Shown here: positions 12,272 through 49,616 of the stretch, in pieces
Numbering within the stretch: position 1 is the stretch's first letter
How the letters are laid out: each line of letters opens with the position of its first letter
Assembly: GCA_049317265.1 (NCBI GenBank)
Contig: JBMOIP010000007.1
Coordinates: forward strand, 2,663-66,662
Reading direction: 5' to 3'
DNA: 64,000 bases
Source of the DNA: Bacteroidales bacterium
GTDB taxonomy: Bacteria; Bacteroidota; Bacteroidia; Bacteroidales; FEN-979
Program-made: the position numbers and the translations under genes
Notes under the pieces: generated by a model
The model's input: the letters and a program-made list of their open reading frames with translations, nothing else
Told to the model about the DNA's origin: nothing
Databases searched by the model: none

Positions 12272-12457
12272 TTAAAGCGCGCTTATAATTTTATGCAGTT
12301 CCTCCTTTGTCTTTCCAAGTTTAACCTGGAGCCTGCCAAACATTTCGTCCTGCCTTCCTTCCTTATACATCAGGTCGTTGTCGGTCAATACTGCAAATTT
12401 CTGTTTGAGCTTGCCTTTCTGCTCATTCCAGTTTCCTTTTACTTCGGTGGTATTCAT
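12272..12457 (-). CDS. csbD: CsbD-family general stress protein
   Basis: The internal ATG at 12457 gives a 61-aa product, MNTTEVKGNWNEQKGKLKQKFAVLTDNDLMYKEGRQDEMFGRLQVKLGKTKEELHKIISAL, which has typical CsbD length and motif. The track's GTG start at 12517 lies within a few nt of the predicted -7 box. Confidence 0.8.
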   Translation of the reverse strand: MNTTEVKGNWNEQKGKLKQKFAVLTDNDLMYKEGRQDEMFGRLQVKLGKTKEELHKIISAL

Positions 12458-12501
12458 TGGTATGGTTTTTATTTTTTCATTCCCGCTTCTGGGGGACAGT
12501 T

Positions 12502-12517
12502 GTGAAACAAATTTCAC
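12502..12517 (-). promoter_or_regulatory. GTGAAA-N4-TTTCAC palindrome just downstream of module P1
   Basis: gtgaaacaaatttcac has perfect 6-bp arms and begins 4 nt after the TTTG of P1 in gene orientation. Confidence 0.5.
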
Positions 12518-12521
12518 CTTA

Positions 12522-12588
12522 CAAAGGTCCTTCTTTTAGCGCCGGAAAGCATTACACAATTTCGGGGAAGAGTTACATCATTCACACC
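12522..12588 (-). promoter_or_regulatory. conserved 67-bp promoter module P1 (upstream of csbD)
   Basis: Gene-oriented sequence: gGTGTGAATGATGTAAC-N13-TGTGTAATGC-N23-TTTG. TTTG is 64 nt from the ATG at 12457. The module starts 19 nt after the stop of the upstream transporter gene. Confidence 0.7.
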
Positions 12589-12607
12589 TTTTCCAGGCTC
12601 GCGACTA

Positions 12608-13870
12608 CTACAATTCCCTGATCTGCATATATGCCATCACAACTACGGCAGCCGACATTAATACCAGCGTGGCCAATCCAAGGATATTTGACCTCTTTCC
12701 ATTGGTGAATTTGCCCATGATTTTTTTGTTGTTCGAGATATGCAGAATGATGGCAATCAACACTGGTGCAGTTATCCCGTAAAGGATGGCCGAATAGATC
12801 AGCGCCTTGATGGGCGAAAGACCGATATAGTGCATCAGTAATCCCAGGATCAGCGAAACGGCAATGATCAGGTAAAAGGCTTTGGCCTTGTTGAATTTCT
12901 TATCCAGTCCCTTTTCCCAGCCAAATGTCTCGGTGATGATATAGGAGAGCGAACCTGTTAATACGGGAATGGCTAAAAAGCCGGTCCCGATCACACCCGC
13001 TGCAAAAAGGAGATAGGCCAGGTTCCCGGCCAGGGGTTTCAGTGCTTGTGCCGCCTGTTCTACTGTATCAATCTGATGAATGCCCCCGTTGAATAAAACC
13101 GTTCCCGTGGTGAGGATGATGAAAAACATGACCAGGTTCGAAAAGAGCATGCCAAAGTCGACATCCTGTTTCATGTCGTGGATAATCCTTTTGTTGACCA
13201 CCAGGTGTTTTTTCTTCAATTTAATATCTTCTGAGACCATGGTCGCCTGCCAGAAAAACAGGTACGGGGAGATGGTGGTGCCAAGAATGGCTACCAGGAT
13301 GCTGATATAACTTTTGTCGAATCTGATGGTCGGAACAAAGGTTGACTTTAATACAGCCACCCAATCCTGCTTATATAAAAACGGGATTACCAGGTAGATA
13401 AGCAGGAAAATGCAGAGGTATTTGAGGATGGCTGCTATTTTCTGATAGGGCAGCCAGATGATCATGGCCATCAGGATGACCGTAAAAAAAAGGCTGAACC
13501 AGGTGGCATGAATGGCAGGGAACAACAAGTTGCCTACAGCGCCCATGCCGGCAATGTCAGCGCCGATATTCATGACAATAGCAGGAAAGCTGAACAGCAG
13601 CATTAAATACAAAATGGGTTTTGGGTAGTTGGCTTTCAACGTTCCTGCCAACCCGTGCGAAGTAACCAGTCCGATCCTGGCGCACATCTCCTGGATGGAG
13701 GCCATCAGCGGAAAGGTGATCAGCGCAGTCCATAAGGTGGATAATCCGTAAGCGGCGCCAGCCTGCGAATAGGTGGCTATCCCCGAGGGATCATCGTCGC
13801 TGGCACCTGTAACAAGGCCGGGCCCCAGGATTTTCCAGAACCTGACAAGTTTTCCCGAAATCATATTCAT
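12608..13870 (-). CDS. NRAMP-family divalent metal cation transporter
   Basis: Polytopic ORF with N-terminal GPGLVTGASDDDPSGIATYSQAG, an NRAMP-related clade motif rather than canonical DPGN. I chose ATG 13870 because it forms an ATGA overlap with the upstream stop; the track start at 13915 is also possible. Confidence 0.75.
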   Translation of the reverse strand: MNMISGKLVRFWKILGPGLVTGASDDDPSGIATYSQAGAAYGLSTLWTALITFPLMASIQEMCARIGLVTSHGLAGTLKANYPKPILYLMLLFSFPAIVMNIGADIAGMGAVGNLLFPAIHATWFSLFFTVILMAMIIWLPYQKIAAILKYLCIFLLIYLVIPFLYKQDWVAVLKSTFVPTIRFDKSYISILVAILGTTISPYLFFWQATMVSEDIKLKKKHLVVNKRIIHDMKQDVDFGMLFSNLVMFFIILTTGTVLFNGGIHQIDTVEQAAQALKPLAGNLAYLLFAAGVIGTGFLAIPVLTGSLSYIITETFGWEKGLDKKFNKAKAFYLIIAVSLILGLLMHYIGLSPIKALIYSAILYGITAPVLIAIILHISNNKKIMGKFTNGKRSNILGLATLVLMSAAVVVMAYMQIREL

Positions 13871-14265
13871 GAATGATGGATCTTGCCGCCTGGTTTGCCG
13901 GCAACCATCTTCCACAAACTCTTCCCAAACGATTTAACTGTTTCCGGATTTTTCGCCACCAGGTCAACAATGCCAAACATAATCGCATTTCCGGCCAGCT
14001 TTTTAAACGGATTCCGGCTTCCCTGCTCAAATAAAAGTTTTGAAAGGTAACCGGTTGCCATGCCAACCGAAGTATTGATTAAATTGTCTTTCAACTCTCT
14101 CGAGGCTGTCAGTTCCCTGAGTGTGCTGATAACAAGGTTCAATGGTTTTACGCTTTCATAGGCAAGCAGGAAATGCTCTTTTAACAATACTCCCTCTTCG
14201 GCCTGAAGGTTTTCCAGTCGCTGAATGGCTGCCCTGAGTGTACTTTGTGAGTTAATGGTTTGCAT
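13867..14265 (-). CDS. hypothetical protein
   Basis: 132-aa ORF with an ATGA overlap to the downstream transporter. No family recognised. Confidence 0.55.
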   Translation of the reverse strand: MQTINSQSTLRAAIQRLENLQAEEGVLLKEHFLLAYESVKPLNLVISTLRELTASRELKDNLINTSVGMATGYLSKLLFEQGSRNPFKKLAGNAIMFGIVDLVAKNPETVKSFGKSLWKMVAGKPGGKIHHS

Positions 14266-14274
14266 AATCTATTC

Positions 14275-14616
14275 TTATTGAAGGGCCTGTGTAATGATGA
14301 GATCGCTAAGCGGTTTTTTAATCCATGAATGAAGGAAGAGATGAAGGATGACTCCCGCAACGAGGTAAAATCCCGCCACGATGAAAAAACCGAAATATAA
14401 TTTCCCAAGCAACTCGCCCAGGTAGATGGCGATTCCGATGTTCAGCACCAGTGCAAACATCGAAATCATGAGGATGACACTTAACTTCGATACCAGCGAA
14501 GTCACCACGATGGTGGTGGTTTCCAGCGCTTTTAGTTTCGAGAGTTCATAGGTTGTCATGGTGTAGGATTCAACCTTTTCAAACAGGTTTTCTATTAAAA
14601 TTGCCGGTGTTTCCAT
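14275..14616 (-). CDS. small membrane protein (phage-holin-family / YqjE-like)
   Basis: 113 aa with two central hydrophobic helices (VILMISMFALVLNIGIAIYLG, GFFIVAGFYLVAGVILHLFL). This type commonly accompanies YtxH genes. Confidence 0.55.
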   Translation of the reverse strand: METPAILIENLFEKVESYTMTTYELSKLKALETTTIVVTSLVSKLSVILMISMFALVLNIGIAIYLGELLGKLYFGFFIVAGFYLVAGVILHLFLHSWIKKPLSDLIITQALQ

Positions 14617-14650
14617 ATCTAAGTATGTTTGTTTTGAAGGGTTATATCAG

Positions 14651-14688
14651 CAAAAAGCAATATCCAAAGATCTCTCCATTGGATATTG
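14651..14688 (-). terminator. intrinsic terminator/attenuator between the YtxH and holin-like genes
   Basis: On the minus strand, a perfect 10-bp stem (caatatccaa / ttggatattg; 14679-14688 and 14658-14667) with an 11-nt loop is followed by cTTTTTg. Confidence 0.55.
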
Positions 14689-14715
14689 TATTTTACTGAT
14701 TTACAATACTTGTAA

Positions 14716-15003
14716 TTAAACTTTCACTTTGGCGTCCGCAATAACTTCCGCCTCAATGTCTTCAATTTTCTGCTTTCCCTCTTTAGCCATGCGATGGGCT
14801 TCCCCTCTCAGGTTTTCAAATTTTTCGGTGATTCCGCCGATGAAATCGTTGAATTTATCCTCCATCTCACCCGCATATTGATCTTTTTTGCGGATGATTC
14901 TCCGCCTGGTCTTTGAACCTTTGGCGGGTGCGAATAAAATGCCTAATGCTGCGCCTGCGGCAATCCCTGCCAAAACGCCTAAAAACACTTTTCCTGAATT
15001 CAT
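14716..15003 (-). CDS. YtxH-domain general-stress-type protein
   Basis: 95 aa with an N-terminal helix GVLAGIAAGAALGILFAPAKG and a charged helical tail, the typical YtxH architecture. Confidence 0.75.
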   Translation of the reverse strand: MNSGKVFLGVLAGIAAGAALGILFAPAKGSKTRRRIIRKKDQYAGEMEDKFNDFIGGITEKFENLRGEAHRMAKEGKQKIEDIEAEVIADAKVKV

Positions 15004-15033
15004 AACTATGGTTTTAATATTGATGATTAATTT

Positions 15034-15543
15034 CTATTTGTTCTTCCCGTTACCATGACCCTCGCCCCGGCCATGCCCTTTTTTCCCCTTGTTGTGATCT
15101 CCTCCCTGGTTGTTCATGTTGCCGTTACGGGAGTTATTCCCTCCCTGATTACCTCTGCCAGGTCCTTCCCCAATGGTACGTTGCATTTGACCACGATAAC
15201 CCTTCTGATATTTCAGCTTGTGCTCCTTGAAGTGAATATAGGGTGACCGGCCATGATAGTCGGGCATGACCACCTTGTACCCATGGTAGAGGTCATAATT
15301 CCTGTACCTGGAAGGAAGATCCCGCTTGCGAATCCAGGTGCTTCCGTTGAAATAGACAAACATCGACGACTGTACATCATAATATGCTTCAACATCCGGC
15401 AGGTAATAATAGTGCACTGAACCATAACCGGCTGGTCCCCATGGAGGTGGAACACCTACCTGAATGCTCATTGAAAACTGTGCCTGCATTGAAAGAGCCA
15501 GCATGAACATTAGGACAATGGCTGATAATTTAACGGCTTTCAT
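15034..15543 (-). CDS. secreted protein with Gly/Asn/His/Lys-rich tail
   Basis: Signal peptide MKAVKLSAIVLMFMLALSMQAQ, a Tyr/Pro-rich core, and the tail GNQGGNNSRNGNMNNQGGDHNKGKKGHGRGEGHGNGKNK. Confidence 0.65.
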   Translation of the reverse strand: MKAVKLSAIVLMFMLALSMQAQFSMSIQVGVPPPWGPAGYGSVHYYYLPDVEAYYDVQSSMFVYFNGSTWIRKRDLPSRYRNYDLYHGYKVVMPDYHGRSPYIHFKEHKLKYQKGYRGQMQRTIGEGPGRGNQGGNNSRNGNMNNQGGDHNKGKKGHGRGEGHGNGKNK

Positions 15544-15565
15544 GTTGTTGTTTTTTGGGTCTCCC

Positions 15566-16006
15566 CTATTTTACATTTTTAACGGTCAGGTCTGTAAAGG
15601 CTTTGCCCATCTCGTCCATATCGTGACTGAATTCAGCTTTGAAAACCAGCCATTTGTCTTTTCCCTCTTCCTTATAATTTTCAAGTCTCATTTTCATGTC
15701 GCTGTTTTTTTGTTCCAGAACTGCGATCTTCTTTTGGTATTCGGCCCGTGCAGATTTTTTCTCCTTTTCAATCCTTGCATTAAACCCCTTGATGCGCTCT
15801 TCATTGGCTGCAATGGTGGAAGCGGTTTCCATCCTGTAAGCAGCGATATCCGCCAGGTATTCCTGGTTTGCCTTGTCAAGATCCTTGTTGGCTTCCACAA
15901 CATTCTCCTGGGCATTCTCCACCTTTTGTGCACTGCTGCTGCAACCTGTTATCATGGCACTTGCAATGAACGTACTTGCTGCGAATGCTAAAATTGTCTT
16001 TTTCAT
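15566..16006 (-). CDS. coiled-coil lipoprotein
   Basis: ATG 16006 gives MKKTILAFAASTFIASAMITGC (lipobox). The remainder is K/E-rich and helical. The track's TTG start at 16081 lies inside module P2. Confidence 0.7.
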   Translation of the reverse strand: MKKTILAFAASTFIASAMITGCSSSAQKVENAQENVVEANKDLDKANQEYLADIAAYRMETASTIAANEERIKGFNARIEKEKKSARAEYQKKIAVLEQKNSDMKMRLENYKEEGKDKWLVFKAEFSHDMDEMGKAFTDLTVKNVK

Positions 16007-16023
16007 TTTATATTTGATTACCT

Positions 16024-16039
16024 GTGAATGAATTTTCAC
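16024..16039 (-). promoter_or_regulatory. GTGAAA-N4-TTTCAC-type palindrome downstream of module P2
   Basis: gtgaatgaattttcac; arms match 5/6. It begins 4 nt after the TTTG of P2. Confidence 0.45.
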
Positions 16040-16043
16040 TATG

Positions 16044-16110
16044 CAAAGGTGGCTCTGTTCAGCGCTGAATGTGTTACACAACTATCTCAAAATGTTACAT
16101 GATTCACACA
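16044..16110 (-). promoter_or_regulatory. conserved 67-bp promoter module P2
   Basis: Gene-oriented sequence: TGTGTGAATCATGTAAC-N13-TGTGTAACAC-N23-TTTG, 37 nt from ATG 16006. Confidence 0.7.
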
Positions 16111-16193
16111 TTAAAAAGAGAAACCCGCCGCGGAATGATATCCGGGCAGGCTCCTCTGCAATCGATCTTATAAACGAGTCAACTGATTCTGAT

Positions 16194-18820
16194 CTATTTA
16201 TTTACATAGAACTTCCGAACGGCCTTCTGTTCACTGTTCATAAAGAGCACGAAGTAGATACCGGCATTAACAGTACTCAGGTCGATCTGCGATTTGTAGA
16301 CACCACCCGTGGTCCGTACATCTTGCAATTCAAGCAGTTTTGCTCCGAGCTGGTTGTATATAGTGATCGTGAATATATCATCAAGGGGAGAGTGAATTGA
16401 GAGGGTGAACTGACCATTATTTGGGACAGGGTAGATGGCAAATGACGCAACCTGAACAGCTTCCTCTATGCCAACCATTTCAACCCAAACTTTATTGGAG
16501 ATTTCTGAGGTACAAGTATTGAGGGTGACAGTGCTCCAATAATATCCGGTATTACCTGACACTGAATAGGTTTGGGCATTGGCACCGGGAATAAGATTCC
16601 CATTATAAAACCATTGGTTGCCTGCCAGACTGCTGCTGGTAAGAAGAGTGCCCACTGCGGTAACAACAGCCGCTGCCGGAACCGGGTGCACCGTTACAGC
16701 CAGGGTTGAGGATGGTCCTGCTCCGCATTGATTTGTACCTGCTACCATCACGTTGCCGGTAACAGGAGTGAATCCAAAATCTACCATCACATGGGCTGTT
16801 CCTGCCCCAGATACAATGGTTGCACCGGCAGGTACAATCCAAACATAGCTCTCTGCTCCCGAAACCGGAGTGGTTGAATAGGCAACACCCGTTGTACCCG
16901 GGCACATCGATGTACTTCCTGAGATGATACCTGCAGCAACAGGCGGTGCACTTACAAATAAAGTGTAAACAACCGGCGCTCCTCCCGGGCATCCCGACAC
17001 ACTAACATAGTTTACACTTACCGACTGATAACCCTGTTGGGTCCAGCTTACATTTAAGGTACTTGTCCCCTGCCCTGAGGCAATGGTACCACCTGCTGAA
17101 ACAGACCATACATATCCCGTCATTCCGCTTTCAGTGTAATAGATGTTGTTGATGGAACTTAAACAAGGATTATTGGTACTTCCGATGGTAGGAACCGGTA
17201 AAGGTTTTACCACAAGTTCGACACCATTTGAATTGGCCACTGGCAGGAAAGTGCCGGTAATGACCACGTTGTAGTTTGATGCAGCATCCAGTGCACCGAC
17301 AGGATTGATGGTGAGGGTGGATGAATTTGCCCCGGTCACATTCCCGCCATTCGATAGATTCAGGATTCCCCTCCTCCACCGATAGGTAATGCCTGTTCCT
17401 GTTGCTGCTACTGAAAAACTTGCTGAACTCCCCGTGCAAACGGTCTGATCGGAAGGTTGTGTCGTGATCAAAGGAGACGTTGTGCCTCCGCAGCCGGCGG
17501 GCATGATGGCCGTGATGGCTGATACACTCAGGGCCCCTGTAGTAGTAAACGCTCTTCCTTCAAGCCGCACGCCCGATTTCAGAAGGATTGCCCCGTTGTT
17601 GCACACTATTGTTCCCCTGAAGAGAGAATAGTCGTTGATGCTCACCGCCCCATCTACTTTCCAGTAAACATTTTTGGCCTGTGTACCATTGATTAATGCC
17701 ACTTTCGAATAGGTGTTGGTTGACAATGCGCCGTTAATTTTAATGACAAAAACAGCAGTTGCATTGCCCTGTGCATTGAGAAACAGGGTATCGGTAAAGG
17801 TGGTAGCCGCATTCAGCAGGTAGGTATGGGGAGTAAGCACCAGGTCGTGTCCAAACTGGGCAGGATAGAGCAACTCGATATCATATGGCAACGTATTGAG
17901 GCAGGTATAACATTTCCCAGGTCGGCGGCACATTGTGCGGTAGAACCATCAGGAATGGGGTGAATGGCCCCGGTTACCAGCAACGGGTTGAACCCGGTGG
18001 TGAGGCCGACATTCGTTCCTACATCACCGGAAACATTGGTAACACCGGCATTTGAAACTGGTCCGCTGGATGAAAACAGCGTATAGCATTGTGTTGAAGC
18101 AAGCGACGGAGCAGCTGGTCCGGTAAGGATCGGGCTCCCGCAACCCGTTGGGAGATAAGCCAGCACGCCTGTAATATTCACAGCGCCTGTTGTTGAAAGC
18201 GCCCTTCCTTCGAGGGTATCGCCGGTACTCATGCTAATGGCCGCATTGTTTGCGATAACGGTTCCACGCATGGTGGTCCCCGCAGCCATGCTTACAAGAC
18301 CTTCAACTTTCCAGAACACATTGCAGGCCAGGGCGCCATTGATCAATTTAACCTTTGACGAAGCGTTGGTGGAGAATGGTCCCTGGATTTTAAAGATAAA
18401 AACGGCATTGGGGTTTCCCTGGCCATCCAAAACAATATCCAGGTTGAGGGTTGCTGCGCCGGAGATGGAGTAAACACCGGCATTCAGGGTTTGTCCGTTT
18501 CCCAGCAGCGGCGAGGGGAAAAATGCAGGGACTGCGCTGTTCAGCAGGTTGTAGGCAATAATCAGGTCGGCGGTGCATTCTGCTGTGGCGCTGTTGCCCG
18601 TGTTCATCACACCGTTTACATTGCCAAAGCCGGTGATGGCTCCGTTGTTGGTGCCCACATTCCCGGTAACCTGTGAAATCCCGGTATTCCCAACTGCCCC
18701 GATGCCCGAAAACAGGACAAATCCGGCAGCTGATCCGAGTGGAGGAGCCTGTGCAATCATAATGGCCGGAGTTAAAAGCAGAATAACTACTGTTATTACT
18801 TTAAGTAGTTGTGTTTTCAT
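16194..18820 (-). pseudogene. double-DUF3494 (ice-binding-like) T9SS cargo protein, frame-broken
   Basis: ORFs 17813-18820 and 16194-17933 are colinear with paralog 19130-21013 across the junction (AADL|GKCYTCLNTLPYDIELLYPAQFG vs AADLLDVYNYLNVLPTDIELLYPAQFG). The frame break is at the 3-nt A run (TTT on plus strand, 17913-17915), and total length is 3n+2. The protein has a signal peptide, two DUF3494-like domains, Ig-like repeats, and a T9SS C-terminal domain (IYPVPNNGQFTL...GIYFVLF). Confidence 0.75.
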
Positions 18821-18838
18821 TTTAGTTACTTTTTATCT

Positions 18839-18854
18839 GTGAAAGTATTTTCAC
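18839..18854 (-). promoter_or_regulatory. GTGAAA-N4-TTTCAC palindrome downstream of module P3
   Basis: gtgaaagtattttcac has perfect 6-bp arms and begins 7 nt after the TTTG of P3. Confidence 0.5.
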
Positions 18855-18861
18855 AACAGGA

Positions 18862-18928
18862 CAAAGGTCGTTATCCCCTTCTCCTTTTATGTTACACAAA
18901 TCCTTATAAAAGTTGTATGATTCACACA
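18862..18928 (-). promoter_or_regulatory. conserved 67-bp promoter module P3
   Basis: Gene-oriented sequence: TGTGTGAATCATACAAC-N13-TGTGTAACAT-N23-TTTG, 41 nt from ATG 18820. The distal hexamer is a variant (ACAAC). Confidence 0.65.
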
Positions 18929-18992
18929 TGATTCCCCGTAAATGCTGCTGAATGCAATTGAAAAAACTCACAATTTTGATCTGTTCTTTTTT

Positions 18993-19120
18993 CCTCTTGG
19001 TTCTCTGTGCCTTCTCAGTGGATCTCTGTGCAATTTTTTACAAGGGTTTTTTCCATGGCTATCCATTCATATTGTTTCACGGAGAAACACAGAGAAAATG
19101 CATAGAGGGCCACAGAGAGG
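18993..19120. repeat. CTCTGTG/CACAGAG imperfect hairpin element (copy a)
   Basis: Left arm: ttctctgtgcc ttctcagtg atctctgtg. Right arm: cacggagaa cacagagaa ...ggccacagagag. The arms pair in hairpin order. The element sits between the stop of 19130-21013 and module P3. Confidence 0.6.
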
Positions 19121-19129
19121 GTTTGACGA

Positions 19130-42158: not shown

Positions 42159-42200
42159 ATTAACAATGGACATTAAACAGCCATAAAATCGGTATGTAAA

Positions 42201-42290: not shown

Positions 42291-42647
42291 ATGAAACGCA
42301 TCGAAGAAGTCAACAATCGGAAACATAAGGTTCAAAACACCACAGGATCAGGAGATATCGCCGGGTATCCATCCTATCCGCCTGACGAAGATGTATACAA
42401 CAAATTTCGCGAGGAACGTGACATAAATCCTGAAGACATTTCAAAAGACAAGGATCCGAACGATGATGAGTTGTCGGGGATCACCAATGTAAAGGGGTTT
42501 GCAAAGAATTTGTCGGGCAACGACCTCGATATTCCAGGTTCGGAACTGGATGACATCCAGGAGGATATTGGCAGTGAAGATGAAGAGAATAACTTTTACA
42601 GCCTTGGAGGTGATGGACATACCACGCTTGATGAGGAAAACGGATAA
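42291..42647 (+). CDS. acidic, probably disordered hydrophilic protein
   Basis: ATG 42291 gives MKRIEEVNN.... It has 118 aa, is D/E-rich (DIPGSELDDIQEDIGSEDEENN), and has no hydrophobic core segments. Confidence 0.55.
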   Translation: MKRIEEVNNRKHKVQNTTGSGDIAGYPSYPPDEDVYNKFREERDINPEDISKDKDPNDDELSGITNVKGFAKNLSGNDLDIPGSELDDIQEDIGSEDEENNFYSLGGDGHTTLDEENG

Positions 42648-42666
42648 CTTAAAACCTAAACGAGTC

Positions 42667-43149
42667 ATGAAAACTACAAAAATCAACAAAGTCCTGATCG
42701 CGCTGGATTACGATGCAACGTCACGAAAAGTCGCCGAGGTCGGATATACCATGGCCACGTCTATGAATGCAGAGGTTATCCTGCTCCATGTTATCGCAGA
42801 TCCTGTCTACTACTCATCGACCGAATTTTCACCCATCATGGGATATACCGGAACCATGGATGCCGTACAACTGCAATTTGACAGCATCGAAGGACTTACA
42901 AGCGCCTCCCAGTTTTTCCTGGATAAAACAAAACTTCACCTTGGGGATGACTCCATCAAGACCCTTGTTAAAGAAGGTGATTTTGCTGAAACGATTTTAC
43001 TGGCTGCGAAAGAGACACATGCCGATATTATCGTGATGGGCTCCCATAGCCGCAAGTGGCTGGAAAATATCGTGATGGGAAGTGTAACTGAAAAAGTGCT
43101 GCATCATACAAAGGTCCCGATGTTCATCGTCCCTACAAAAAAAAGGTAA
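42667..43149 (+). CDS. universal stress protein (UspA family)
   Basis: ATG 42667 gives MKTTKINKVLIALDYD.... The C-terminal motif is ADIIVMGSHSRKWLENIVMGSVTEKVLHHTKVPMFIVP. Confidence 0.85.
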   Translation: MKTTKINKVLIALDYDATSRKVAEVGYTMATSMNAEVILLHVIADPVYYSSTEFSPIMGYTGTMDAVQLQFDSIEGLTSASQFFLDKTKLHLGDDSIKTLVKEGDFAETILLAAKETHADIIVMGSHSRKWLENIVMGSVTEKVLHHTKVPMFIVPTKKR

Positions 43150-43181
43150 CGAGGCCACAAAGGAATCAAATATAGCAACCC

Positions 43182-44081
43182 ATGGATTTCGTAGACTATT
43201 ATAAGGTATTAGGAATAGCCAAAACGGCCACTCCAAAAGAGATTAAGACAGCCTACAGGAAGTTAGCCAGGAAGCTTCATCCTGATTTGAATCCCAATGA
43301 CAAGAATGCCAAACGCAATTTCCAGCAGATCAATGAGGCAAACGAGGTGCTGAGCGATCCTGAAAAACGAAAGAAATATGATCAGCATGGCGAGGACTGG
43401 CAGCATGCGGAGGAGGCAGAAAAAGCCAATCAGAACCGCCGGCAGTCTTCAAATCAACGCGGGGCAAGGTATGCTGACCCATCACAGGGTGGAGATTTTT
43501 CCGATTTTTTTGAATCCATGTTTGGTGGCGCAGCAAATCCGGGAAGAGGAAGCCAGGCACGATACCGCGGAGAAGATTACAACGCCGAACTGCACCTGGA
43601 ACTAATTGATGCTTACAAAACCCATAAACAAACGTTGACAGTCAATGGGAAAAGTATCCGGATTACCATACCCGCCGGTATTGAAAACGGGCAAACCATC
43701 AAAATACCCGGTTATGGCGGGCCGGGGACAAACGGCGGCCCCGGGGGCGACCTCTATATCGCTTTTTCTATCTCCAACCACCCGTCGATTAAGCGTTTTG
43801 GCAATAACCTGTATACTACAGCCGATCTGGATTTGTACACTGCAATACTCGGAGGAGAGTTTCTGCTGGAAACCCTCAGCGGAAAAGTCAAACTGAAGAT
43901 CAAGCCTGAAACGCAGAATGGAAGCAAAGTGAGGTTAACCGGCAAAGGATTTCCAATCTACAAAAATGAAGGACATTTTGGCGACCTGGTTGTAACCTGG
44001 GCGATTAAAATCCCGACAACCCTTAATGATCAGCAACGTGCACTATTTACGGAATTATCTAAATTACAATCCAATACCTGA
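43182..44081 (+). CDS. cbpA: DnaJ-class co-chaperone without zinc finger (CbpA-like)
   Basis: J domain DYYKVLGI...HPD...KRKKYD, a G-rich linker and two C-terminal beta domains. No CxxCxGxG repeats. Confidence 0.8.
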   Translation: MDFVDYYKVLGIAKTATPKEIKTAYRKLARKLHPDLNPNDKNAKRNFQQINEANEVLSDPEKRKKYDQHGEDWQHAEEAEKANQNRRQSSNQRGARYADPSQGGDFSDFFESMFGGAANPGRGSQARYRGEDYNAELHLELIDAYKTHKQTLTVNGKSIRITIPAGIENGQTIKIPGYGGPGTNGGPGGDLYIAFSISNHPSIKRFGNNLYTTADLDLYTAILGGEFLLETLSGKVKLKIKPETQNGSKVRLTGKGFPIYKNEGHFGDLVVTWAIKIPTTLNDQQRALFTELSKLQSNT

Positions 44082-44084
44082 ACA

Positions 44085-44390
44085 ATGCACACAAAAAGTT
44101 TAATCGCATTGGACGAATTCTGTACCAGTCACAACATTGGAATTGCCTTCATCAGCACGTTAGAACAAACGGGGCTGATTGAGATCTCGACCATTGACGA
44201 TGCAGGGTTCATCGAAGCGGGTCATTTACTGCAGCTGGAACAGATCCTCCGCTTTTATTATGACCTGGACATCAATGTGGAAGGCATCGAAACAATCACT
44301 CATTTACTTCAGCGAATCAAGGTGATGCAGGAGGAGATCATCTCCCTCAGGAACAGATTGAACCTGTATGAATCATCAGACCAGGCATAA
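44085..44390 (+). CDS. cbpM: chaperone modulator CbpM-like (MerR-like fold)
   Basis: 101 aa, immediately downstream of the cbpA-like gene, with a C-terminal leucine-rich helix (MQEEIISLRNRLNLYE). Confidence 0.6.
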   Translation: MHTKSLIALDEFCTSHNIGIAFISTLEQTGLIEISTIDDAGFIEAGHLLQLEQILRFYYDLDINVEGIETITHLLQRIKVMQEEIISLRNRLNLYESSDQA

Positions 44391-44455
44391 CAGATTTTTT
44401 TACAGTCAAAATTGAACTTACTTTAACATTGCATTCACCATAAAACTCTCATATT

Positions 44456-44767
44456 ATGAAAATTGCCATCAACAACAGCAGGAAAATTTCTGCAATCCAG
44501 GCAGAATTCAATTCGATATTCCCGGCATATAAAATTGCATTTCATGTCAAGCCAAGCCATCCTGGTTCGGCCCCTTCTGAGAAACTGGTCAGCCATAGCA
44601 GCAAAACCCTGCAGGAATGCAGGGCAGTGCACAATGAGGGGTTTCTTGAAGTGCATTCATCCATGGATATCAAGGACCTCGAAGAAAATTTCAGGGATAT
44701 TTTCGGTTTGTCGGTCGAAATTGTACCGAAAAAAGAGAATGGTCCCATCGTAACCCATGCAGGATGA
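44456..44767 (+). CDS. hypothetical protein
   Basis: 103-aa ORF with an ATGA overlap to the next gene. No family recognised. Confidence 0.5.
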   Translation: MKIAINNSRKISAIQAEFNSIFPAYKIAFHVKPSHPGSAPSEKLVSHSSKTLQECRAVHNEGFLEVHSSMDIKDLEENFRDIFGLSVEIVPKKENGPIVTHAG

Positions 44768-46335
44768 AGGCGGCTTTCCTGATAGCCATATGCCTGCTTG
44801 CCTCTTGCGTTCTGCATAGCCAGGATGTGGCTCCTCAAAATCCCAGGAAAGTTGCTCCAAACGATACCATCGTTCCCGGGAAAGGAACACCCGAAAAGCA
44901 ACTTGAGAAAATCAAGGAGGTGAAAATTGAATTGCTTTCCGATTCCATCGGGAATGAACCAAAAAAGAGTGCATTGGTCGACACTACCATGCAAAACAAA
45001 TACGGCGATTTACTCGATGACGATACGGCCTACAATAAAAGATATCCCTTGTGGATACCTGTCACCGAAGTTCTGGGGGCAGTTACCCTCACCTGGGCTT
45101 TGGACCGTTATGCCCTGAATGCCGATTATGCCAGGATTGGCTTCAAATCGTGGAAAATAAACCTGACACAGGGATGGACCTGGGATGACGACCGTTTTGG
45201 TGTCAATTTCATTGGACACCCTTACTCCGGAACGCTCTCCTACAATGCCGGGCGTGCCAATGGGTATAACTACTACCAGTCCTTTTGCTTTGCCCTGGGA
45301 GGCAGCCTGATGTGGGAATATTTTGGAGAAAACACACGGCCATCCTATAACGATATTATTTATACTCCTGTCAACGGCGCCTTTATCGGTGAAATTCTAT
45401 ACAGGTTAAGCTCTAACATTCTCGATGACCGTACCAGGGGAACAGAGCGGGTGTTCCGGGAAATAGCGGCAGGATTGATTGACCCGATGCGAGGCTTTAA
45501 CCGGCTGATCCAGGGCAAATCATTCAGAAGGACCAATAAAGAGGTCTATGAAAAAGAACCTATCAACATCTCTCTTTACGGAGGCATGCGAAAAGTGGAT
45601 GAAACACCATACAGGGCTTTCGGAAAAGGAAGTTACAGCGGCATGTTCAACTTTCAGTTTGATTATGGCAACCCGTTTGAACTTCGTAAAAGGAAGCCAT
45701 TCGATTTTTTCAAACTCAGGGTCGACTTAAATTTCGGCGTTGGCCGGAAGTACCTTGACAACGTACTTGGCTACGCCATCCTGTTCGGTCAAAACAAGCA
45801 GGCTGGCAAACTGGCGCTGCTCATCGGAGGGTTTCAATATTATGATTACTGGGACAACAATAAATTCGAATTGGGCACCATTGGATTTGGGGCAGGTGTT
45901 ATCTCCAAATGGCCGGTGAGCAAGGTAAGCAACCTTTATACCAGCATTCACCTGGCTTTGGTCCCGTTTGGCGGCAATAGCACAAAATTCGTCATCGACA
46001 CTACCCAGGTGAGGGATTATAATTTCGTCGGAGGATTGGAAGCCAAGTTTGAAAGTACGTTCAACCTCAGCAGTTTTGCCACGGCAACGTTAAGATATTA
46101 CTTTTACTGGATGCGCACTTACATTGGCATGAACGGTAACAACTTCATTCAGATCATCAAACCCAGGATCACCGTCCATGTATACAAGGGCTTAAGTTTA
46201 GGAGTTGAATCCCAGCTCTATTACAACGATCTGTATCAAAGGAATCAGCCGGCTCATCACTCCATTCAAACAGAACAGAAAATATTCATCCTGTTCTACC
46301 TTGAAGATAAGCAGCGAAGGGGTCATTATAACTGA
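44764..46335 (+). CDS. DUF3943-like secreted/outer-membrane protein
   Basis: 523 aa with a signal peptide. The core NFIGHPYSGTLSYNAGRANGY...MWEYFGENTRPSYND recalls DUF3943. The C-terminal half is beta-barrel-like. Confidence 0.6.
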   Translation: MKAAFLIAICLLASCVLHSQDVAPQNPRKVAPNDTIVPGKGTPEKQLEKIKEVKIELLSDSIGNEPKKSALVDTTMQNKYGDLLDDDTAYNKRYPLWIPVTEVLGAVTLTWALDRYALNADYARIGFKSWKINLTQGWTWDDDRFGVNFIGHPYSGTLSYNAGRANGYNYYQSFCFALGGSLMWEYFGENTRPSYNDIIYTPVNGAFIGEILYRLSSNILDDRTRGTERVFREIAAGLIDPMRGFNRLIQGKSFRRTNKEVYEKEPINISLYGGMRKVDETPYRAFGKGSYSGMFNFQFDYGNPFELRKRKPFDFFKLRVDLNFGVGRKYLDNVLGYAILFGQNKQAGKLALLIGGFQYYDYWDNNKFELGTIGFGAGVISKWPVSKVSNLYTSIHLALVPFGGNSTKFVIDTTQVRDYNFVGGLEAKFESTFNLSSFATATLRYYFYWMRTYIGMNGNNFIQIIKPRITVHVYKGLSLGVESQLYYNDLYQRNQPAHHSIQTEQKIFILFYLEDKQRRGHYN

Positions 46336-46344: not shown

Positions 46345-47259
46345 TCAGAAATGGTAAACAAGGGTAGCTCCTAAGCCGGTTGAACTTACCGGGATGATTT
46401 GCAGCTTTTTATTGGCGTTGAAATAGACCATGCTGCCTATGGCAAATCCCAATGCAGAACCAACCAGCACATCCGAAGCCCAGTGATCATTCACCGCAAG
46501 CCGGTAAAGTGCAGTAAAGCCTGCCAGTCCGAAACAGACACCCGGCACCCATTTTGTATCCCAGTATTCGAGGGCAACGACGGTGGCCACGGAAAAAATC
46601 GCGGAAGAGTGTCCTGAAGGAAATGAATTGTAGCCAAAGGTCCCGTAAGCGCCGCCCCAGCTGAATGGGCCATCCCATACATGAGGGTCGGGAGGATTGT
46701 CCTGGTAGGGTCTGTGCCGGTGGGTGATTTGTTTGATGACATTGGTAAAAACGACAGTAATTACATAAGCTTCCAGTCCTTTCATCCCGGTTTCCTTAGC
46801 CCGCTTGTTCTTCCAGATAACACCACAGGCATAAAAAACGCCCAATGCTGGTATACTGATCATACCGCTTCCTAGAGGACTGAAAAAATATTGCGAACTC
46901 TTGCTGATAAAAAGATTCTCGTTATGAAAAAAAAACTGCTGGATGGGCTTGTCTCCATAGGCTATAAGGCCGATGGCGGAGGTTGTAATTACAGCAGCCG
47001 CAATGATCTGCCCCTTCCTCCAGTGAAATGGATTGGTAAAGGCCGACTTTGTATCTGTCCAGTATGAACCGGCATAGGATTTGGAAAATTCACTGGTAGG
47101 CAATATATTCTGAGGTTCCGCAGTGATGATCAGGGTATCCGGTTTTTTATTGACCGTATCACTTTGCGTTTGTGCGATGGTGTCCTTTTTCTCCTGCGCT
47201 TCAGCCTGCAAAACCACTAAAAAGCAAAGAAGGAAAAAAACAATTGTCCGGGAAATCAT
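46345..47259 (-). CDS. PAP2-family lipid phosphatase
   Basis: All three PAP2 motifs are present: KQITHRHRP, PSGHSS, and RLAVNDHWASD. Confidence 0.8.
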   Translation of the reverse strand: MISRTIVFFLLCFLVVLQAEAQEKKDTIAQTQSDTVNKKPDTLIITAEPQNILPTSEFSKSYAGSYWTDTKSAFTNPFHWRKGQIIAAAVITTSAIGLIAYGDKPIQQFFFHNENLFISKSSQYFFSPLGSGMISIPALGVFYACGVIWKNKRAKETGMKGLEAYVITVVFTNVIKQITHRHRPYQDNPPDPHVWDGPFSWGGAYGTFGYNSFPSGHSSAIFSVATVVALEYWDTKWVPGVCFGLAGFTALYRLAVNDHWASDVLVGSALGFAIGSMVYFNANKKLQIIPVSSTGLGATLVYHF

Positions 47260-47328
47260 GGTGTTACCTGCCTTTATTCAACATCACTGCAAACATACCA
47301 AAATTCAAGTGTATTCTGCGATAATTGT

Positions 47329-47508
47329 CTACTTGCCACGGTGGTCTTTTTGATCGTGATGCCCCGAATTACCGGGATGTCCTTTTTGGCCATGCTGTCC
47401 ATTCCCGCCACCAGGATGGCCCATCCGGGGTCCGGGGAACATGCAGGATGTTAACTGCGTTAGGATCGCGACCATCAAAATGACCAATAGCACCTTCAGT
47501 TTTTTCAT
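47329..47508 (-). CDS. small His/Gly-rich lipoprotein (sORF absent from track)
   Basis: The 59-aa product is MKKLKVLLVILMVAILTQLTSCMFPGPRMGHPGGGNGQHGQKGHPGNSGHHDQKDHRGK, with lipobox LTSC. The ATG is 32 nt downstream of the P11 TTTG. Confidence 0.55.
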   Translation of the reverse strand: MKKLKVLLVILMVAILTQLTSCMFPGPRMGHPGGGNGQHGQKGHPGNSGHHDQKDHRGK

Positions 47509-47540
47509 GGAATTATAGATTTCACCTATGTATTATTATG

Positions 47541-47607
47541 CAAAGGTCCATGAATCAACAGCAACAAGTGTTACATAACTAAGGAAAAAACTTACATGAT
47601 TCACACA
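47541..47607 (-). promoter_or_regulatory. conserved 67-bp promoter module P11
   Basis: Gene-oriented sequence: TGTGTGAATCATGTAAG-N13-TATGTAACAC-N23-TTTG. The distal end abuts the stop codon (47608-47610) of the upstream gene. Confidence 0.7.
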
Positions 47608-48666
47608 TTAATAGGTTACCGGGGCCTTTTTCTTCTTTTTGAAGATGTCGAACCTTGTCCCACCCCAAAACCGGATCTGGCCAACATCATAAGCAAACAA
47701 TGCGTTGCTGAGTTTATCAGGAACTTCGTTGAACCCTGTTTGAACCGAAGCCCCGAGAAACCATTTGTCCGAATTATAACCCAGTGCCAGTCTGCCGCTG
47801 AGCTGGAAGATAAATCCAAAATCCGTATCAGTGTCCAGTTTGCTGGTATACGACGAAAACTGGGCAGCAACGCCAGGAAAAACGCCTGCTGTAACATAGA
47901 AATTCTTAAGGAAAACGAAGGTATACATGTACCCCGGCGAAAGTCCGTAGGTATAGAACTCCCCGCTTTTAATCTGGTTGGCCAATGGCAGACCGTAGGC
48001 ATCTGCCAGTTCCTGCGGAATGATTCCATCATTTGAAGACACCCTGAAGTATAAAAAGGAGGGTCGTACCACCAGGCTGCCGGCACTCTTCTTCTGCCGT
48101 TCATTCTGAATGAATGCAGCCCTCACCGAAAACCTCTTTGCTTTATAGATCCAATACCCGGAAATGCCCAGCGAGATGGTTTGCATGTCTGGTATAATGT
48201 AGTGGGTACCATCCGGCCGTTCAGGGGAAGAAAGATAAAAACCCTTGTATCGCTGCAAAAAGAATTCACCGGCCACAACCCGCCCGAAGGCATTGATCCG
48301 GAGGTCTATCGTGGATGTTTTTCCGTAAGCGTCACGGTCTGTTTTATAGAAAGGGTTATCCATCGATAACCCCAGTCCAAACCATCTCCAGAACCCGGCA
48401 ATCCCAATCCTCAGGTTGACATTGGGCCGGTAAACGACTTTTGAAATTTTTTCATTATCAGGATTGATCAGCAGCGAGGCATTCTGAAATAAGAGGAACA
48501 ACCTTGCCGTTACCAGGCTGGTATAATCTTCAAGGTAATTACTGTCGAAGGCAATGTGCGGTATGGTATCCGGCGATTGCATAGTTGATTGGGCGCCGGA
48601 AAACTTGGCGACAATGATCAAGTAGAAAAGTATCGTGCCGGTAACCAGTGTTTTAGCTGACTTCAT
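47608..48666 (-). CDS. DUF4421-like outer-membrane protein
   Basis: 352 aa with a signal peptide and beta-strand-rich sequence (RINAFGRVVAGEFFLQRYKGFYL...). The family assignment is from memory. Confidence 0.6.
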   Translation of the reverse strand: MKSAKTLVTGTILFYLIIVAKFSGAQSTMQSPDTIPHIAFDSNYLEDYTSLVTARLFLLFQNASLLINPDNEKISKVVYRPNVNLRIGIAGFWRWFGLGLSMDNPFYKTDRDAYGKTSTIDLRINAFGRVVAGEFFLQRYKGFYLSSPERPDGTHYIIPDMQTISLGISGYWIYKAKRFSVRAAFIQNERQKKSAGSLVVRPSFLYFRVSSNDGIIPQELADAYGLPLANQIKSGEFYTYGLSPGYMYTFVFLKNFYVTAGVFPGVAAQFSSYTSKLDTDTDFGFIFQLSGRLALGYNSDKWFLGASVQTGFNEVPDKLSNALFAYDVGQIRFWGGTRFDIFKKKKKAPVTY

Positions 48667-48769
48667 TCAAATACGTCTGTTCATCCTTTTTCGCACGGAC
48701 CACTCTGCCCCGGTAGATTGAACTCATCAGGCTACCGGAGTGCAAAGATATCATTTCCTGCTGCAGGAT

Positions 48770-48955
48770 TTATACATGGATATTCATCAGGTAAGCGAAC
48801 AGTCCAAACACCTTGAGGAGCCAAATTACAAGAACTATGACGACTACCGCATTGAAAATTCTTTTAATTTTCACATCCATGGGGATGTAAGCATTGACAA
48901 GCCAGAGGAGTACACCGGCAACGATCAGGACAATTAATATAGTGAAGAGGGGCAT
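48770..48955 (-). CDS. small two-TM membrane protein
   Basis: 61 aa: MPLFTILIVLIVAGVLLWLVNAYIPMDVKIKRIFNAVVVIVLVIWLLKVFGL. Confidence 0.6.
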   Translation of the reverse strand: MPLFTILIVLIVAGVLLWLVNAYIPMDVKIKRIFNAVVVIVLVIWLLKVFGLFAYLMNIHV

Positions 48956-49001
48956 AATATAGGTTTTAAATGATTAACAATGGTAAATCGAATTACCCGG
49001 T

Positions 49002-49616
49002 TCATTTACCGGCAGACATTTTCATCAATGCCACAGGATCCAGTTTCATGGTCAGGTCTTCAATGCCCAGGTTGGTCAGTTCAATTTCACACTGGATCAC
49101 TACTTCCTCACTGATCAGGAACCCTGCCGTTTCCAACGGGGTATTCCAGGCCAGTCCCCAGTCGCTTCTGCTCAATTTCCCGGTGACGGTAAACCCGGCT
49201 TTTTCATTTCCCCATGGATCGTGCACAATTCCGCCGAACTGCAGGTTCATCTTTACATTCTTCGTAATCCCGACCATGGTCAGTTCACCCCACATTTCAT
49301 GGTTTCCTTCATGATCCGGGTTGCCGATCGTACCCGAAGTAAAGGTGAGTTGCTTGTGGTTCTGAACATCAAAAAAATCACTGCTTTTCAGATGTTCATC
49401 CCGCTTTTCATTTGCTGTTTCAATGGATGACGCATCGATCCACAGGTCAATTTCAACTGTGGTAAAGTCCTTCTCAGTAGTATAAATGCTGGCATCAAAT
49501 TTTTTGAAAGTACCATTGACGTGAGAAATCATCAGATGCTTGATTTTAAAACCGATTTCGCTGTGAGCCTGGTCGATAGACCACTTTGTTTTTTGTAGAA
49601 CTTGAGGAGTTTTCAT
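49002..49616 (-). CDS. yceI: YceI-family periplasmic polyisoprenoid-binding protein
   Basis: Contains WSIDQAHSEIGFKIKHLMISHVNGTFKKF and a later ...VTGKLSRSDWGL. 204 aa. Confidence 0.85.
   Translation of the reverse strand: MKTPQVLQKTKWSIDQAHSEIGFKIKHLMISHVNGTFKKFDASIYTTEKDFTTVEIDLWIDASSIETANEKRDEHLKSSDFFDVQNHKQLTFTSGTIGNPDHEGNHEMWGELTMVGITKNVKMNLQFGGIVHDPWGNEKAGFTVTGKLSRSDWGLAWNTPLETAGFLISEEVVIQCEIELTNLGIEDLTMKLDPVALMKMSAGK

Follow-up and report, generated by a model that had tools for sequence, protein, structure and literature searches.

How might a phylum in which no general stress response has been described bring its protective genes under common control? General stress responses have been well worked out for sigma-B in the Firmicutes, RpoS in the gamma-proteobacteria, and EcfG in the alpha-proteobacteria, and to our knowledge no equivalent has been described for the Bacteroidota. 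The question is raised by a 64,000-nucleotide stretch of a Bacteroidales genome (lineage FEN-979; GenBank assembly GCA_049317265.1, contig JBMOIP010000007.1), hereafter the window, in which one oriented module of ~70 bases occurs in 13 copies, with none expected by chance. An earlier reading of the letters of this DNA (the original prediction) had suggested that one dedicated cis-element joins a set of stress and envelope gene families and would be a candidate for a missing sigma-B/RpoS/EcfG-type circuit. The joining element is borne out by the 13 modules, none of which is matched in shuffled sequence, and so is the stress-type gene content, but the mechanism appears not to be of the sigma type, as the module combines a sigma-A -7 box with two upstream boxes. 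The same reading had stated that no such system was described for the phylum, and in the open-access literature (subscription-only papers lay outside the scope) no description was found of the module motif, of the circuit, or of a Bacteroidota general stress regulator. What this DNA and its relatives display is a module of fixed geometry and constant orientation to genes, spread across the phylum, placed before recurring gene families and tightly linked to the genes of two small AraC-type proteins (AraC-1 and AraC-2), a histidine kinase, and a receiver.

A Promoter-Like Module in Front of 13 Gene Units

Repeat finding in the window returned two families of ~44–71 nt, which are a single element on opposite strands. 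The search pattern GTGTGAATNATGTAA-N13-TTRTGTAA, with up to two mismatches, gave 13 matches in the window and none in 100 dinucleotide-preserving shuffles, and a position weight matrix (PWM) built from the copies in other genomes recovered the same 13 modules with scores of 42–70, none falling between 18 and 42. Oriented to their downstream genes, the 13 copies form an ungapped alignment, and for all of them a start codon lies 24–83 nt past the last box. The same-strand gene runs that follow the modules make up 13 units, which tile positions 12272–56664 nearly completely as a 44-kb island.

The consensus of the window copies is aAtGTGTGAATnATGTAAC-N11-ARTTRTGTAACa-N21-tAnCTTTG; their boxes follow in the order TGTGTGAAT[C/G]ATGTAAC, 11 nt, [A/G]TT[A/G]TGTAACAC, ~20 nt, and A[C/A]CTTTG, and the module stretches include GTGTGAAT plus the TGTAAC of each box. 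In 137 copies from other genomes, conservation beyond the search pattern comprises AAT just 5', T at +16/+19, and A at +26, and tAnCTTTG stands at the invariant distance of +58 to +65 (A in 123/137, TT in 133–135/137, T in 114/137, G in 91/137). A similar consensus, aAtGTGTGAATnATgtAActtWTt-N5-ARTTRTgTAAca-N21-AncTTTg, was obtained from 148 copies in loci sampled through their AraC genes (described below) plus the window, a set less biased than that found by exact pattern.

The sigma-A -7 box of Bacteroidota is TAnnTTTG at -12 to -5 (PMC9723704), and because the last box of the module matches it, transcription is predicted to start at about +70 of the module. By this numbering the full distal box, AATGTGTGAATnATGTAAC, lies at about -73 to -55, and the proximal box, A-R-TT-R-TGTAAC, lies at about -44 to -34, where the -33 TTTG box, absent from the modules, would otherwise be found. 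The distal core AATnATGTAAC and the proximal core A(A/G)TT(A/G)TGTAAC, which have AATnRTGTAAC in common, are direct repeats 21 bp apart, or two helical turns. An open reading frame (ORF) of at least 38 codons begins 72–140 nt downstream of 98/122 copies, compared with 12/122 in the opposite direction, and in other genomes the ATG follows the -7 box at a median of 40 nt. Judged by sequence, the module behaves like a promoter. Searches of Rfam gave no match at gathering thresholds in the whole window and none at E <= 0.5 within 12000–57000, and counts from an E. coli-type sigma-70 promoter and terminator scan of 12000–31999 stood at shuffle level, the model being uninformative for Bacteroidota.

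Distribution of the Module and Its Recurring Gene Families

A scan of a 596-Gb collection, one genome per species and with an estimated chance expectation of less than one match, found the exact pattern in at least 120 loci in four orders, the Bacteroidales, Chitinophagales, Cytophagales, and Flavobacteriales. By group assignments read from record titles, the carriers in the Bacteroidales (broad sense) include Prolixibacteraceae, Draconibacterium, Mariniphaga, Maribellus, Sunxiuqinia, Tangfeifania, Carboxylicivirga, Ancylomarina, Paludibacter, Rikenellaceae, Lentimicrobiaceae, and two metagenome-assembled genomes (MAGs) of Bacteroidaceae; those in the Chitinophagales are Ferruginibacter, Segetibacter, Ginsengibacter, and Saprospiraceae; those in the Cytophagales are Emticicia, Arcicella, and Lacihabitans; and those in the Flavobacteriales are Yeosuana and Lutibacter. 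Cultured organisms are represented by Maribellus sp. YY47, Maribellus maritimus 5E3, Sunxiuqinia indica, Ancylomarina salipaludis, Carboxylicivirga sp. RSCT41, and Lacihabitans sp. LS3-19. Identity to the window is at most ~78% among the loci listed. A single match among those listed is labelled as lying outside the Bacteroidota, on a 3.7-kb 'Syntrophales' MAG contig (L077, JBAZOY010000146.1), and its label is probably a binning error.

The genes behind the module recur along with it. The first ORF after each of 133 module copies elsewhere was clustered with the window proteins, and most window units have counterparts among these first genes: CsbD (9), Ice_binding (8), OmpA (8), Thivi_2564 (6), a 169-aa unknown family (5), lmo0937/DUF5670 (4), sll1863-like (3), DUF6600 (3), small AraC (3), YtxH (2), MlaE (2), the acidic protein (2), and Usp, YceI, and PAP2 (1 each). 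Further first genes encode BON (OsmY-like), ferritin-family (possibly Dps-like), DUF4142, DUF305, glycine-zipper, cupin, CMAS (cfa-like), and peptidase M48 proteins, an old-yellow-enzyme family oxidoreductase (Oxidored_FMN), bestrophin-like proteins, outer-membrane barrels, and PAS kinases. The reverse test, made in AraC-sampled loci, which all lie near AraC genes and are not a genome-wide sample, found the module directly upstream of MlaE in 6/6 cases, CsbD in 3/3, Thivi_2564 in 3/3, Ice_binding in 10/13, and the 169-aa family in 5/7; families internal to operons had it directly upstream in 0/8, as expected. Whether orthologs in other Bacteroidota carry the same module, which the original prediction had left to genome comparison, thus has a positive answer for homologous families in all four orders.

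In one locus (L121) a module at 2952(+) lies upstream of a NusG-family paralogue (3256–3789), and the neighbourhood of AraC-1 there holds genes for a SHOCT protein, a fatty-acid desaturase, VIT1, and an old-yellow-enzyme family oxidoreductase (Oxidored_FMN). This gene content hints at lineage-specific extensions of the regulon.

The AraC-1 Operon and AraC-2

Module 9 precedes an operon that supplies candidates for both an activator and its input, and this arrangement, a module before an AraC-1 operon, recurs in other genomes. AraC-1 (34448–35029(+), 193 aa) consists of an N-terminal alpha/beta domain of ~85 aa followed by an AraC-type DNA-binding domain with two helix-turn-helix motifs, and it is the candidate module-binding activator. 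A 100% identical 193-aa protein stands among the family clusters (P0001). The C-terminal domain of ~100 aa matches Pfam HTH_18 at 59.3 bits (cut-off 33.6) and HTH_AraC at 31.1 (cut-off 26.6), and a Foldseek search with the AraC-1 model returned the DNA-binding domains of AraT, GadX, YesN, AraC, MarA, and AdpA with target-normalised TM-scores of 0.68–0.78. By the sequence of this domain, AraC-1 and AraC-2 belong to the AraC/XylS family. Residues 1–85 had no match in Pfam, NCBIfam, or the PDB and contain no cupin or periplasmic-binding-protein-like domain; an AlphaFold2 model gives a short alpha/beta fold with a predicted local distance difference test score (pLDDT) of 57–70. An HMA/ACT-like ferredoxin fold considered for this domain was unsupported, with no match in the PDB fold search.

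The stop codon of AraC-1 overlaps the start of a gene for a cytoplasmic hybrid histidine kinase (35029–37737(+), 902 aa), which has no periplasmic domain and begins directly with PAS, followed by five 21-aa coiled-coil repeats, a second PAS, HisKA, HATPase, REC, and an HPt-like C-terminus, the last assigned by eye from the translation and reported by no search. The end of the kinase gene is in turn overlapped by a gene for a single-domain receiver (37721–38155(+), 144 aa), copies of which, 62–88% identical, follow the kinase in 12 other loci. At 35365–35750(+) the kinase gene carries five tandem 63-nt repeats between the two PAS domains, encoding three-heptad units of 21 aa with the sequence ANKELAFQNxEKEKRAAELIIANKEL. 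Searches with tblastn gave multiple staggered matches to this region in four other loci (L012, L048, L078, L086), which suggests that repeat number varies and that the repeats form a coiled-coil linker of variable length.

AraC-2 (56104–56664(-), 186 aa) is a paralogue that shares 70% identity with AraC-1, and the recognition helices predicted for the two are almost the same. Its coding sequence ends Glu-Asn-Val-stop, read as GAA AAT GTG TGA, which is the conserved 5' end of module 13; that module opens with six bases, GTG TGA, that serve AraC-2 as its final codon and its stop. In genes of the AraC-2 type the module lies at nt +534 of the coding sequence, both in the window and in 10 further loci, or 11 genomes in all. 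Genes of the AraC-1 type in module loci have the module ~115 nt upstream. Where AraC-2 and AraC-1 are adjacent (L023, L122), the module in the AraC-2 stop drives AraC-1 by position.

Small AraC homologues were found in 24/120 module loci of 8 kb. They belong to a family of at least 8,000 clusters, with 79–85% identity among the best 120 and names that are generic at most. An independent sample was drawn from metagenomes by AraC peptide patterns, blind to the module, and consists of the best 80 of at least 571 loci. In this sample, 72 AraC-1 genes had enough upstream sequence, and a strong module was present at 44 of them (mostly at -110 to -117), a single-site variant at 6, and a degenerate copy in the same place at ~7, so that ~79% have a recognisable module or variant at about -113. 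AraC-1 was followed by the kinase in 25/32 loci and by kinase and receiver in 24/32. Modules also cluster near the AraC-1 operon, with 11 in 20 kb (L121), 6 in 20 kb (L122), and 118 in 470 kb of AraC-sampled loci. The single-site variant consists of a full distal-type GTGTGAATTATGTAAC box, 20 nt, and then TATCTTTG (L131, L137, L142, L143, L146, L149); no kinase or receiver lies downstream in L142, L143, L146, and L149, and L131 and L137 are too short to tell. This variant suggests that a distal-type box suffices by itself as a binding site, and it points to a third class of small AraC paralogue.

Proposed Mechanism and Alternative Explanations

From these features we infer a circuit, triggered by stress, in which AraC proteins under the control of the kinase and receiver bind the module and activate transcription. 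It is likely, judging from the boxes and the protein domains, that AraC-1, AraC-2, or both bind the full distal and half-conserved proximal sites and activate sigma-A polymerase from a class II position. The housekeeping sigma-A RNA polymerase would then read the module as a promoter but depend on an activator to do so: AraC-1 and/or AraC-2 would occupy the boxes as a dimer or as two units and draw in polymerase in the manner of AraC, XylS, and RhaS at class II promoters. The invariant spacing between the boxes and the -7 element, the 21-bp interval of the cores, and the missing -33 box argue for activation rather than plain repression. With AraC-1 behind its own module, a loop of positive autoregulation would arise. 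The PAS hybrid kinase, its HPt region, and the receiver, predicted to be co-transcribed with AraC-1, would supply the input signal, and the receiver may contact AraC-1 protein to protein, in effect forming a split regulator of the YesN or hybrid two-component system (HTCS) type. Because AraC-1 has no receiver domain, this coupling is purely inferred; a weak hint toward it is that, by sequence, the DNA-binding domain finds its best PDB matches in an HTCS protein and in AraC domains fused to receivers (AraT, YesN). The output would be a regulon of small protective proteins and envelope-remodelling functions.

Several points weigh against this mechanism, and some of them would equally favour a different factor encoded elsewhere, for example a dimer of the Crp/Fnr type, that binds the module and counts AraC-1, AraC-2, kinase, and receiver merely among its regulon members. 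The link to AraC is positional, a matter of guilt by association, and a regulon member autoregulated by another factor would look alike; AraC-1 has neither a receiver nor a recognisable signal-input domain; and the distal box can also be read as TGTGA-N6-TAACA, which resembles a CRP/FNR-type site and agrees with the second CRP half-site at 4/5 positions. Lack of a -33 element does not by itself prove activator dependence, since many Bacteroidota promoters have only a weak one; the collection loci were picked by exact pattern, which inflates the conservation of pattern positions; and the AraC-sampled loci, as the best 80 of at least 571, are biased toward close relatives. Binding by another factor is nevertheless improbable, given that the conserved cores are direct repeats 21 bp apart without a palindrome, that small AraC genes occur in 24/120 module loci compared with one weak match to E. 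coli CRP and FNR queries (a test of low sensitivity), that the stop codon of AraC-2 is embedded in the module in 11 genomes, and that no Crp/Fnr gene is present among the window ORFs scanned. As a leading idea, a CRP/FNR-type regulator was rejected on the direct-repeat cores and on the lack, in this low-sensitivity test, of any enrichment of Crp-like genes near modules. Much less probable still is an alternative-sigma promoter, with TGTAAC as -35, CTTTG as -10, and a true analogue of sigma-B, RpoS, or EcfG to read it. Many promoters of the extracytoplasmic function (ECF) type do have an AAC-containing -35 element, and the gene content matches alternative-sigma stress regulons; against this, 21 nt separate TGTAAC from the -7 box, where ~16–17 nt is usual for ECF promoters, a second conserved box at -73 to -55 lies out of reach of a sigma factor, and no sigma factor gene was found among the scanned window ORFs or the ORFs called in L121 and L122. 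The downstream box is, moreover, the sigma-A -7 consensus at the sigma-A position (PMC9723704), and an ECF-type promoter was rejected on its spacing and on this box. The ORFs scanned likewise include no alternative sigma, anti-sigma, or partner-switching genes. The many copies within a short region might also recall a non-regulatory dispersed repeat, such as a repetitive extragenic palindromic (REP) or miniature inverted-repeat transposable element (MITE)-like sequence or a recombination site, an idea that is scarcely credible in view of the strict orientation and distance to start codons (98/122 vs 12/122), the fixed spacing to the -7 box, the lack of terminal inverted repeats in the module consensus, and the position of the element upstream of homologous genes in four orders.

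A further alternative concerns the functional label only and is compatible with the AraC mechanism: the regulon may serve one specific programme of cold, freezing, desiccation, or osmotic response with envelope remodelling or dormancy, set off by one signal through the PAS kinase. This is rather unlikely, though better placed than the alternatives above. Ice_binding proteins are among the commonest module-driven genes (three window ORFs and eight first genes elsewhere), the acidic hydrophilin-like protein, Mla, PAP2, OmpA, and CMAS (cfa-like) families fit such a programme, as does the fatty-acid desaturase beside AraC-1 in L121, and a single dedicated kinase sits in the core operon. The lean of the content toward cold, freezing, desiccation, and envelope functions thus makes a narrower response possible. 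Multi-stress families are also driven by the module, however, namely CsbD, YtxH, the lmo0937 family, Usp, CbpA/CbpM, BON, the ferritin family (possibly Dps-like), DUF4142, peptidase M48, and the old-yellow-enzyme family oxidoreductase, and family names cannot separate a general from a specific reading. Taken as a whole, the content closely resembles, by family names, the general stress regulons of other phyla. Our tentative proposal, which carries more doubt than AraC binding itself, is a phylum-wide general stress response of the Bacteroidota that may operate without an alternative sigma factor: two small AraC activators would act on sigma-A modules of 70 bp, would be switched by a PAS hybrid kinase with HPt region and a receiver as a 'split' HTCS, and would induce CsbD, YtxH, lmo0937-family, Usp, CbpA/CbpM, OsmY-like, Dps-like, ice-binding, and envelope-remodelling genes, with the palindrome described below as an extra control on a subset of the promoters.

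Relationship to Known Regulatory Systems

In Bacillus, csbD and ytxH are sigma-B genes, and lmo0937-type genes belong to the sigma-B regulon of Listeria; osmY, dps, cfa, and cbpAM of E. coli depend on RpoS, and CsbD, BON, and glycine-zipper genes recur in EcfG regulons of alpha-proteobacteria. The system proposed here is like sigma-B (Bacillus, Listeria), RpoS, and EcfG-NepR-PhyR in that one promoter signature unites dozens of small protective proteins, in the names of the families involved (CsbD, YtxH, lmo0937-family, Usp, CbpA/CbpM, BON/OsmY-like, Dps-like, cfa-like, and glycine-zipper), and in the presence of the regulator gene inside its own regulon. A phosphorelay adjoins the regulator, as in EcfG-PhyR. 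In place of a sigma-specific -35/-10 pair, however, the module has a housekeeping -7 box and two upstream boxes of the activator type, and the resemblance to a general stress response is therefore best read as one of gene content and not of mechanism.

Among AraC-family regulators, the nearest parallels in promoter architecture are AraC (araBAD I1-I2), XylS (Pm), RhaS, and MelR at class II promoters. These have a DNA-binding domain with two helix-turn-helix motifs, two direct-repeat sites at an interval of ~21 bp, of which the proximal one adjoins the -35 region (a likeness of geometry only), and autoregulation, which is likely here as well. The small AraC proteins differ from them in having a short alpha/beta domain at the N-terminus and no cupin or sugar-binding domain, in being ~80% identical across genera, far above typical AraC regulators, and in serving a putative large dispersed regulon instead of one catabolic operon. 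With MarA/SoxS/Rob and GadX/GadW they would share the control of a multi-gene stress regulon by AraC-family proteins through asymmetric boxes of ~20 bp at fixed positions relative to the core promoter, and six AraC loci have just one full box, placed 20 nt ahead of the -7 box, which may recall MarA/SoxS/Rob-type regulons, where a monomeric regulator binds one box per promoter. The standard module has two boxes, unlike the sites of MarA/SoxS/Rob, and the small AraC proteins have an extra N-terminal domain; relative to both groups, the kinase and receiver lie in the same operon and other target families are involved. The HTCS proteins of Bacteroidota likewise combine a histidine kinase, a receiver, and an AraC-type DNA-binding domain. 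In contrast to the single HTCS polypeptide, the domains here are spread over three ORFs (34448–35029, 35029–37737, and 37721–38155), the sensor is a cytoplasmic PAS instead of a periplasmic glycan-binding domain, an HPt-like region and a stand-alone receiver are added, and the targets are stress and envelope genes instead of polysaccharide utilisation loci; no SusC/SusD-type genes occur among the module-driven units.

A Palindrome at the Predicted Transcription Start

A second element, the palindrome GTGAAAATNNATTCAC (GTGAA-N6-TTCAC), starts exactly at module +70 or +73, the predicted transcription start. In the window it is found on the minus strand at 12502–12517, 16024–16039, 18839–18854, and 21031–21046, after the modules for CsbD, the sll1863/YtxH unit, and two Ice_binding units. 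Allowing up to three mismatches, it accompanies 57/328 modules and occurs at none of the control offsets, and beyond the window it is present in L001, L003, L015, L022, L038, L039, L062, L111, L122, and other loci. The half-site GTGAAT equals the start of the distal box. Two roles are conceivable for the palindrome, that of a DNA operator adding a second layer of control and that of an RNA hairpin at the 5' end of the transcript. Just past it, the 5' leaders of CsbD carry a short GC hairpin, CCGC-CAGNN-GCGG (window ~12480–12500(-), L054, L081, L090, L102, L114), which had no Rfam match within 12000–57000 at E <= 0.5.

Gene Units of the Island

Families were assigned with Pfam and NCBIfam, the ORFs of CsbD, the sll1863-family gene, AraC-2, and the receiver were delimited by hand on the strength of homology, and the membership of internal genes in a unit was assigned by strand and spacing alone. 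For each module the coordinates and strand are given below, followed by the position at which its GTGTG starts and its PWM score.

The five leftmost units are read from the minus strand. Module 1 (12522–12590(-), 12587, 70.1) drives CsbD alone (unit 1, 12272–12457(-), 61 aa). Module 2 (16044–16112(-), 16109, 66.2) precedes a longer run (unit 2, 12608–16003(-)) that extends from an sll1863-family stress protein through the 169-aa unknown protein, YtxH (14716–15003(-)), a weakly matching holin-like ORF (14275–14616(-)), and a 132-aa unknown protein to NRAMP (12608–13870(-)). Behind module 3 (18862–18930(-), 18927, 48.8, two mismatches) lie two overlapping Ice_binding ORFs with Ig/PKD domains and a type IX secretion system (T9SS) tail (unit 3, 16194–18820(-)), probably one frameshifted gene. 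Module 4 (21054–21122(-), 21119, 61.8) drives a 627-aa protein with two Ice_binding domains and a T9SS tail (unit 4, 19130–21013(-)), and module 5 (24691–24759(-), 24756, 58.2), which is divergent from module 6, drives DUF6600 and a 688-aa OmpA-family protein (21268–23334) in unit 5 (21268–24656(-)). The DUF6600 gene contains in-frame 51-nt tandem repeats at 23488–23823(-).

The next five units are read from the plus strand. MlaE, an MlaF-like ABC ATPase, and MlaD (unit 6, 24953–27743(+)) follow module 6 (24861–24929(+), 24864, 58.6). A 265-aa OmpA-family protein with a coiled-coil N-terminus (unit 7, 27856–28653(+)) follows module 7 (27757–27825(+), 27760, 64.8) and is succeeded by a terminator-like hairpin at 28683–28712, the only convincing terminator in the scan of 12000–31999. 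Module 8 (29475–29543(+), 29478, 61.3) drives a small ORF of the lmo0937 family (29606–29761(+), above the NCBIfam cut-off), an AI-2E transporter in two ORFs, GH130, and GT1 (unit 8, 29606–34282(+)). The weakest copy, module 9 (34297–34365(+), 34300, 42.0), drives AraC-1, the kinase, and the receiver, after which the remainder of unit 9 (38160–42129(+)) holds an internal P-type cation ATPase gene (38160–40688), a 182-aa PAS-like ORF, and a BrkB-family membrane protein. Module 10 (42199–42267(+), 42202, 58.4) is followed by unit 10 (42291–46335(+)), in which a hydrophilin-like acidic protein of 118 aa (42291–42647(+)) precedes Usp (42667–43149(+)), a CbpA-like DnaJ protein (43182–44081(+)), its MerR_2/CbpM-like partner (44085–44390(+)), a 103-aa unknown protein, and DUF3943.

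The last three units return to the minus strand. Module 11 (47541–47609(-), 47606, 65.5) drives a 59-aa small ORF and a PAP2 phosphatase (46345–47259) in unit 11 (46345–47508(-)); module 12 (49643–49711(-), 49708, 68.0) drives YceI (49002–49616), a Thivi_2564-family membrane protein of 61 aa, and DUF4421 in unit 12 (47608–49616(-)); and module 13 (56044–56112(-), 56109, 66.1) drives unit 13 (49713–56016(-)), composed of PAP2 (55105–56016), DUF748, and an internal run of HlyD-type adaptor, MacB/FtsX permease, and ABC ATPase (49713–52742(-)).

All families named in the original prediction are present by Pfam and NCBIfam (CsbD, YtxH with the holin-like ORF, lmo0937, UspA, YceI, CbpA/CbpM, the acidic protein, OmpA, Mla, MacAB-like, PAP2, NRAMP, and P-type). 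Described there as first genes or members of module-driven units, they are indeed members, but YtxH, the holin-like ORF, NRAMP, Usp, CbpA/CbpM, the MacAB-like genes, and the P-type ATPase lie inside units and are not first. The list also omitted three Ice_binding ORFs, DUF6600, the sll1863-family gene, the Thivi_2564 small ORF, and the module-driven AraC-kinase-receiver operon. The range of 12272–49616 assigned to the regulon is module-driven almost throughout, but the island continues to 56664, with a 13th module (56044–56112) and a second regulator gene.

Two pairs of overlapping ORFs in different frames, 16194–17933(-)/17813–18820(-) (Ice_binding) and 29769–30344(+)/30292–30879(+) (AI-2E transporter), each split one domain and are probably assembly-error frameshifts or pseudogenes. 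A 230-aa ORF after the OmpA gene (28625–29317(+)) has no family match and overlaps the best terminator-like hairpin (28683–28712; 11 pairs, then a T run), and it is unlikely to be a real gene. Directly downstream of CsbD, on the border of the island, 5121–11944(-) encodes a hybrid kinase of 1,871 aa in which PAS-family matches recur, along with a REC-HisKA-HATPase protein. Farther out, a cytochrome bd oxidase lies at 2360–5100, and a T9SS-tailed protein outside the island contains 87-nt tandem repeats at 62696–63271(-).

Implications for Bacteroidota Biology

Soils, sediments, oceans, and guts all count Bacteroidota among their dominant phyla. The module provides a sharply defined cis-element that can be scanned for in any genome to predict the regulon, together with named candidate regulators in AraC-1, AraC-2, the PAS kinase, and the receiver. 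The module and the AraC/kinase set form a testable candidate for a stress circuit so far undescribed in this phylum. If the proposal is correct, a regulon of the general stress type would work through an activator together with the housekeeping sigma factor and not through sigma replacement, DUF6600, DUF4421, DUF3943, Thivi_2564, and several families without a Pfam match would gain a regulatory context, and ice-binding proteins would be placed inside a stress regulon.

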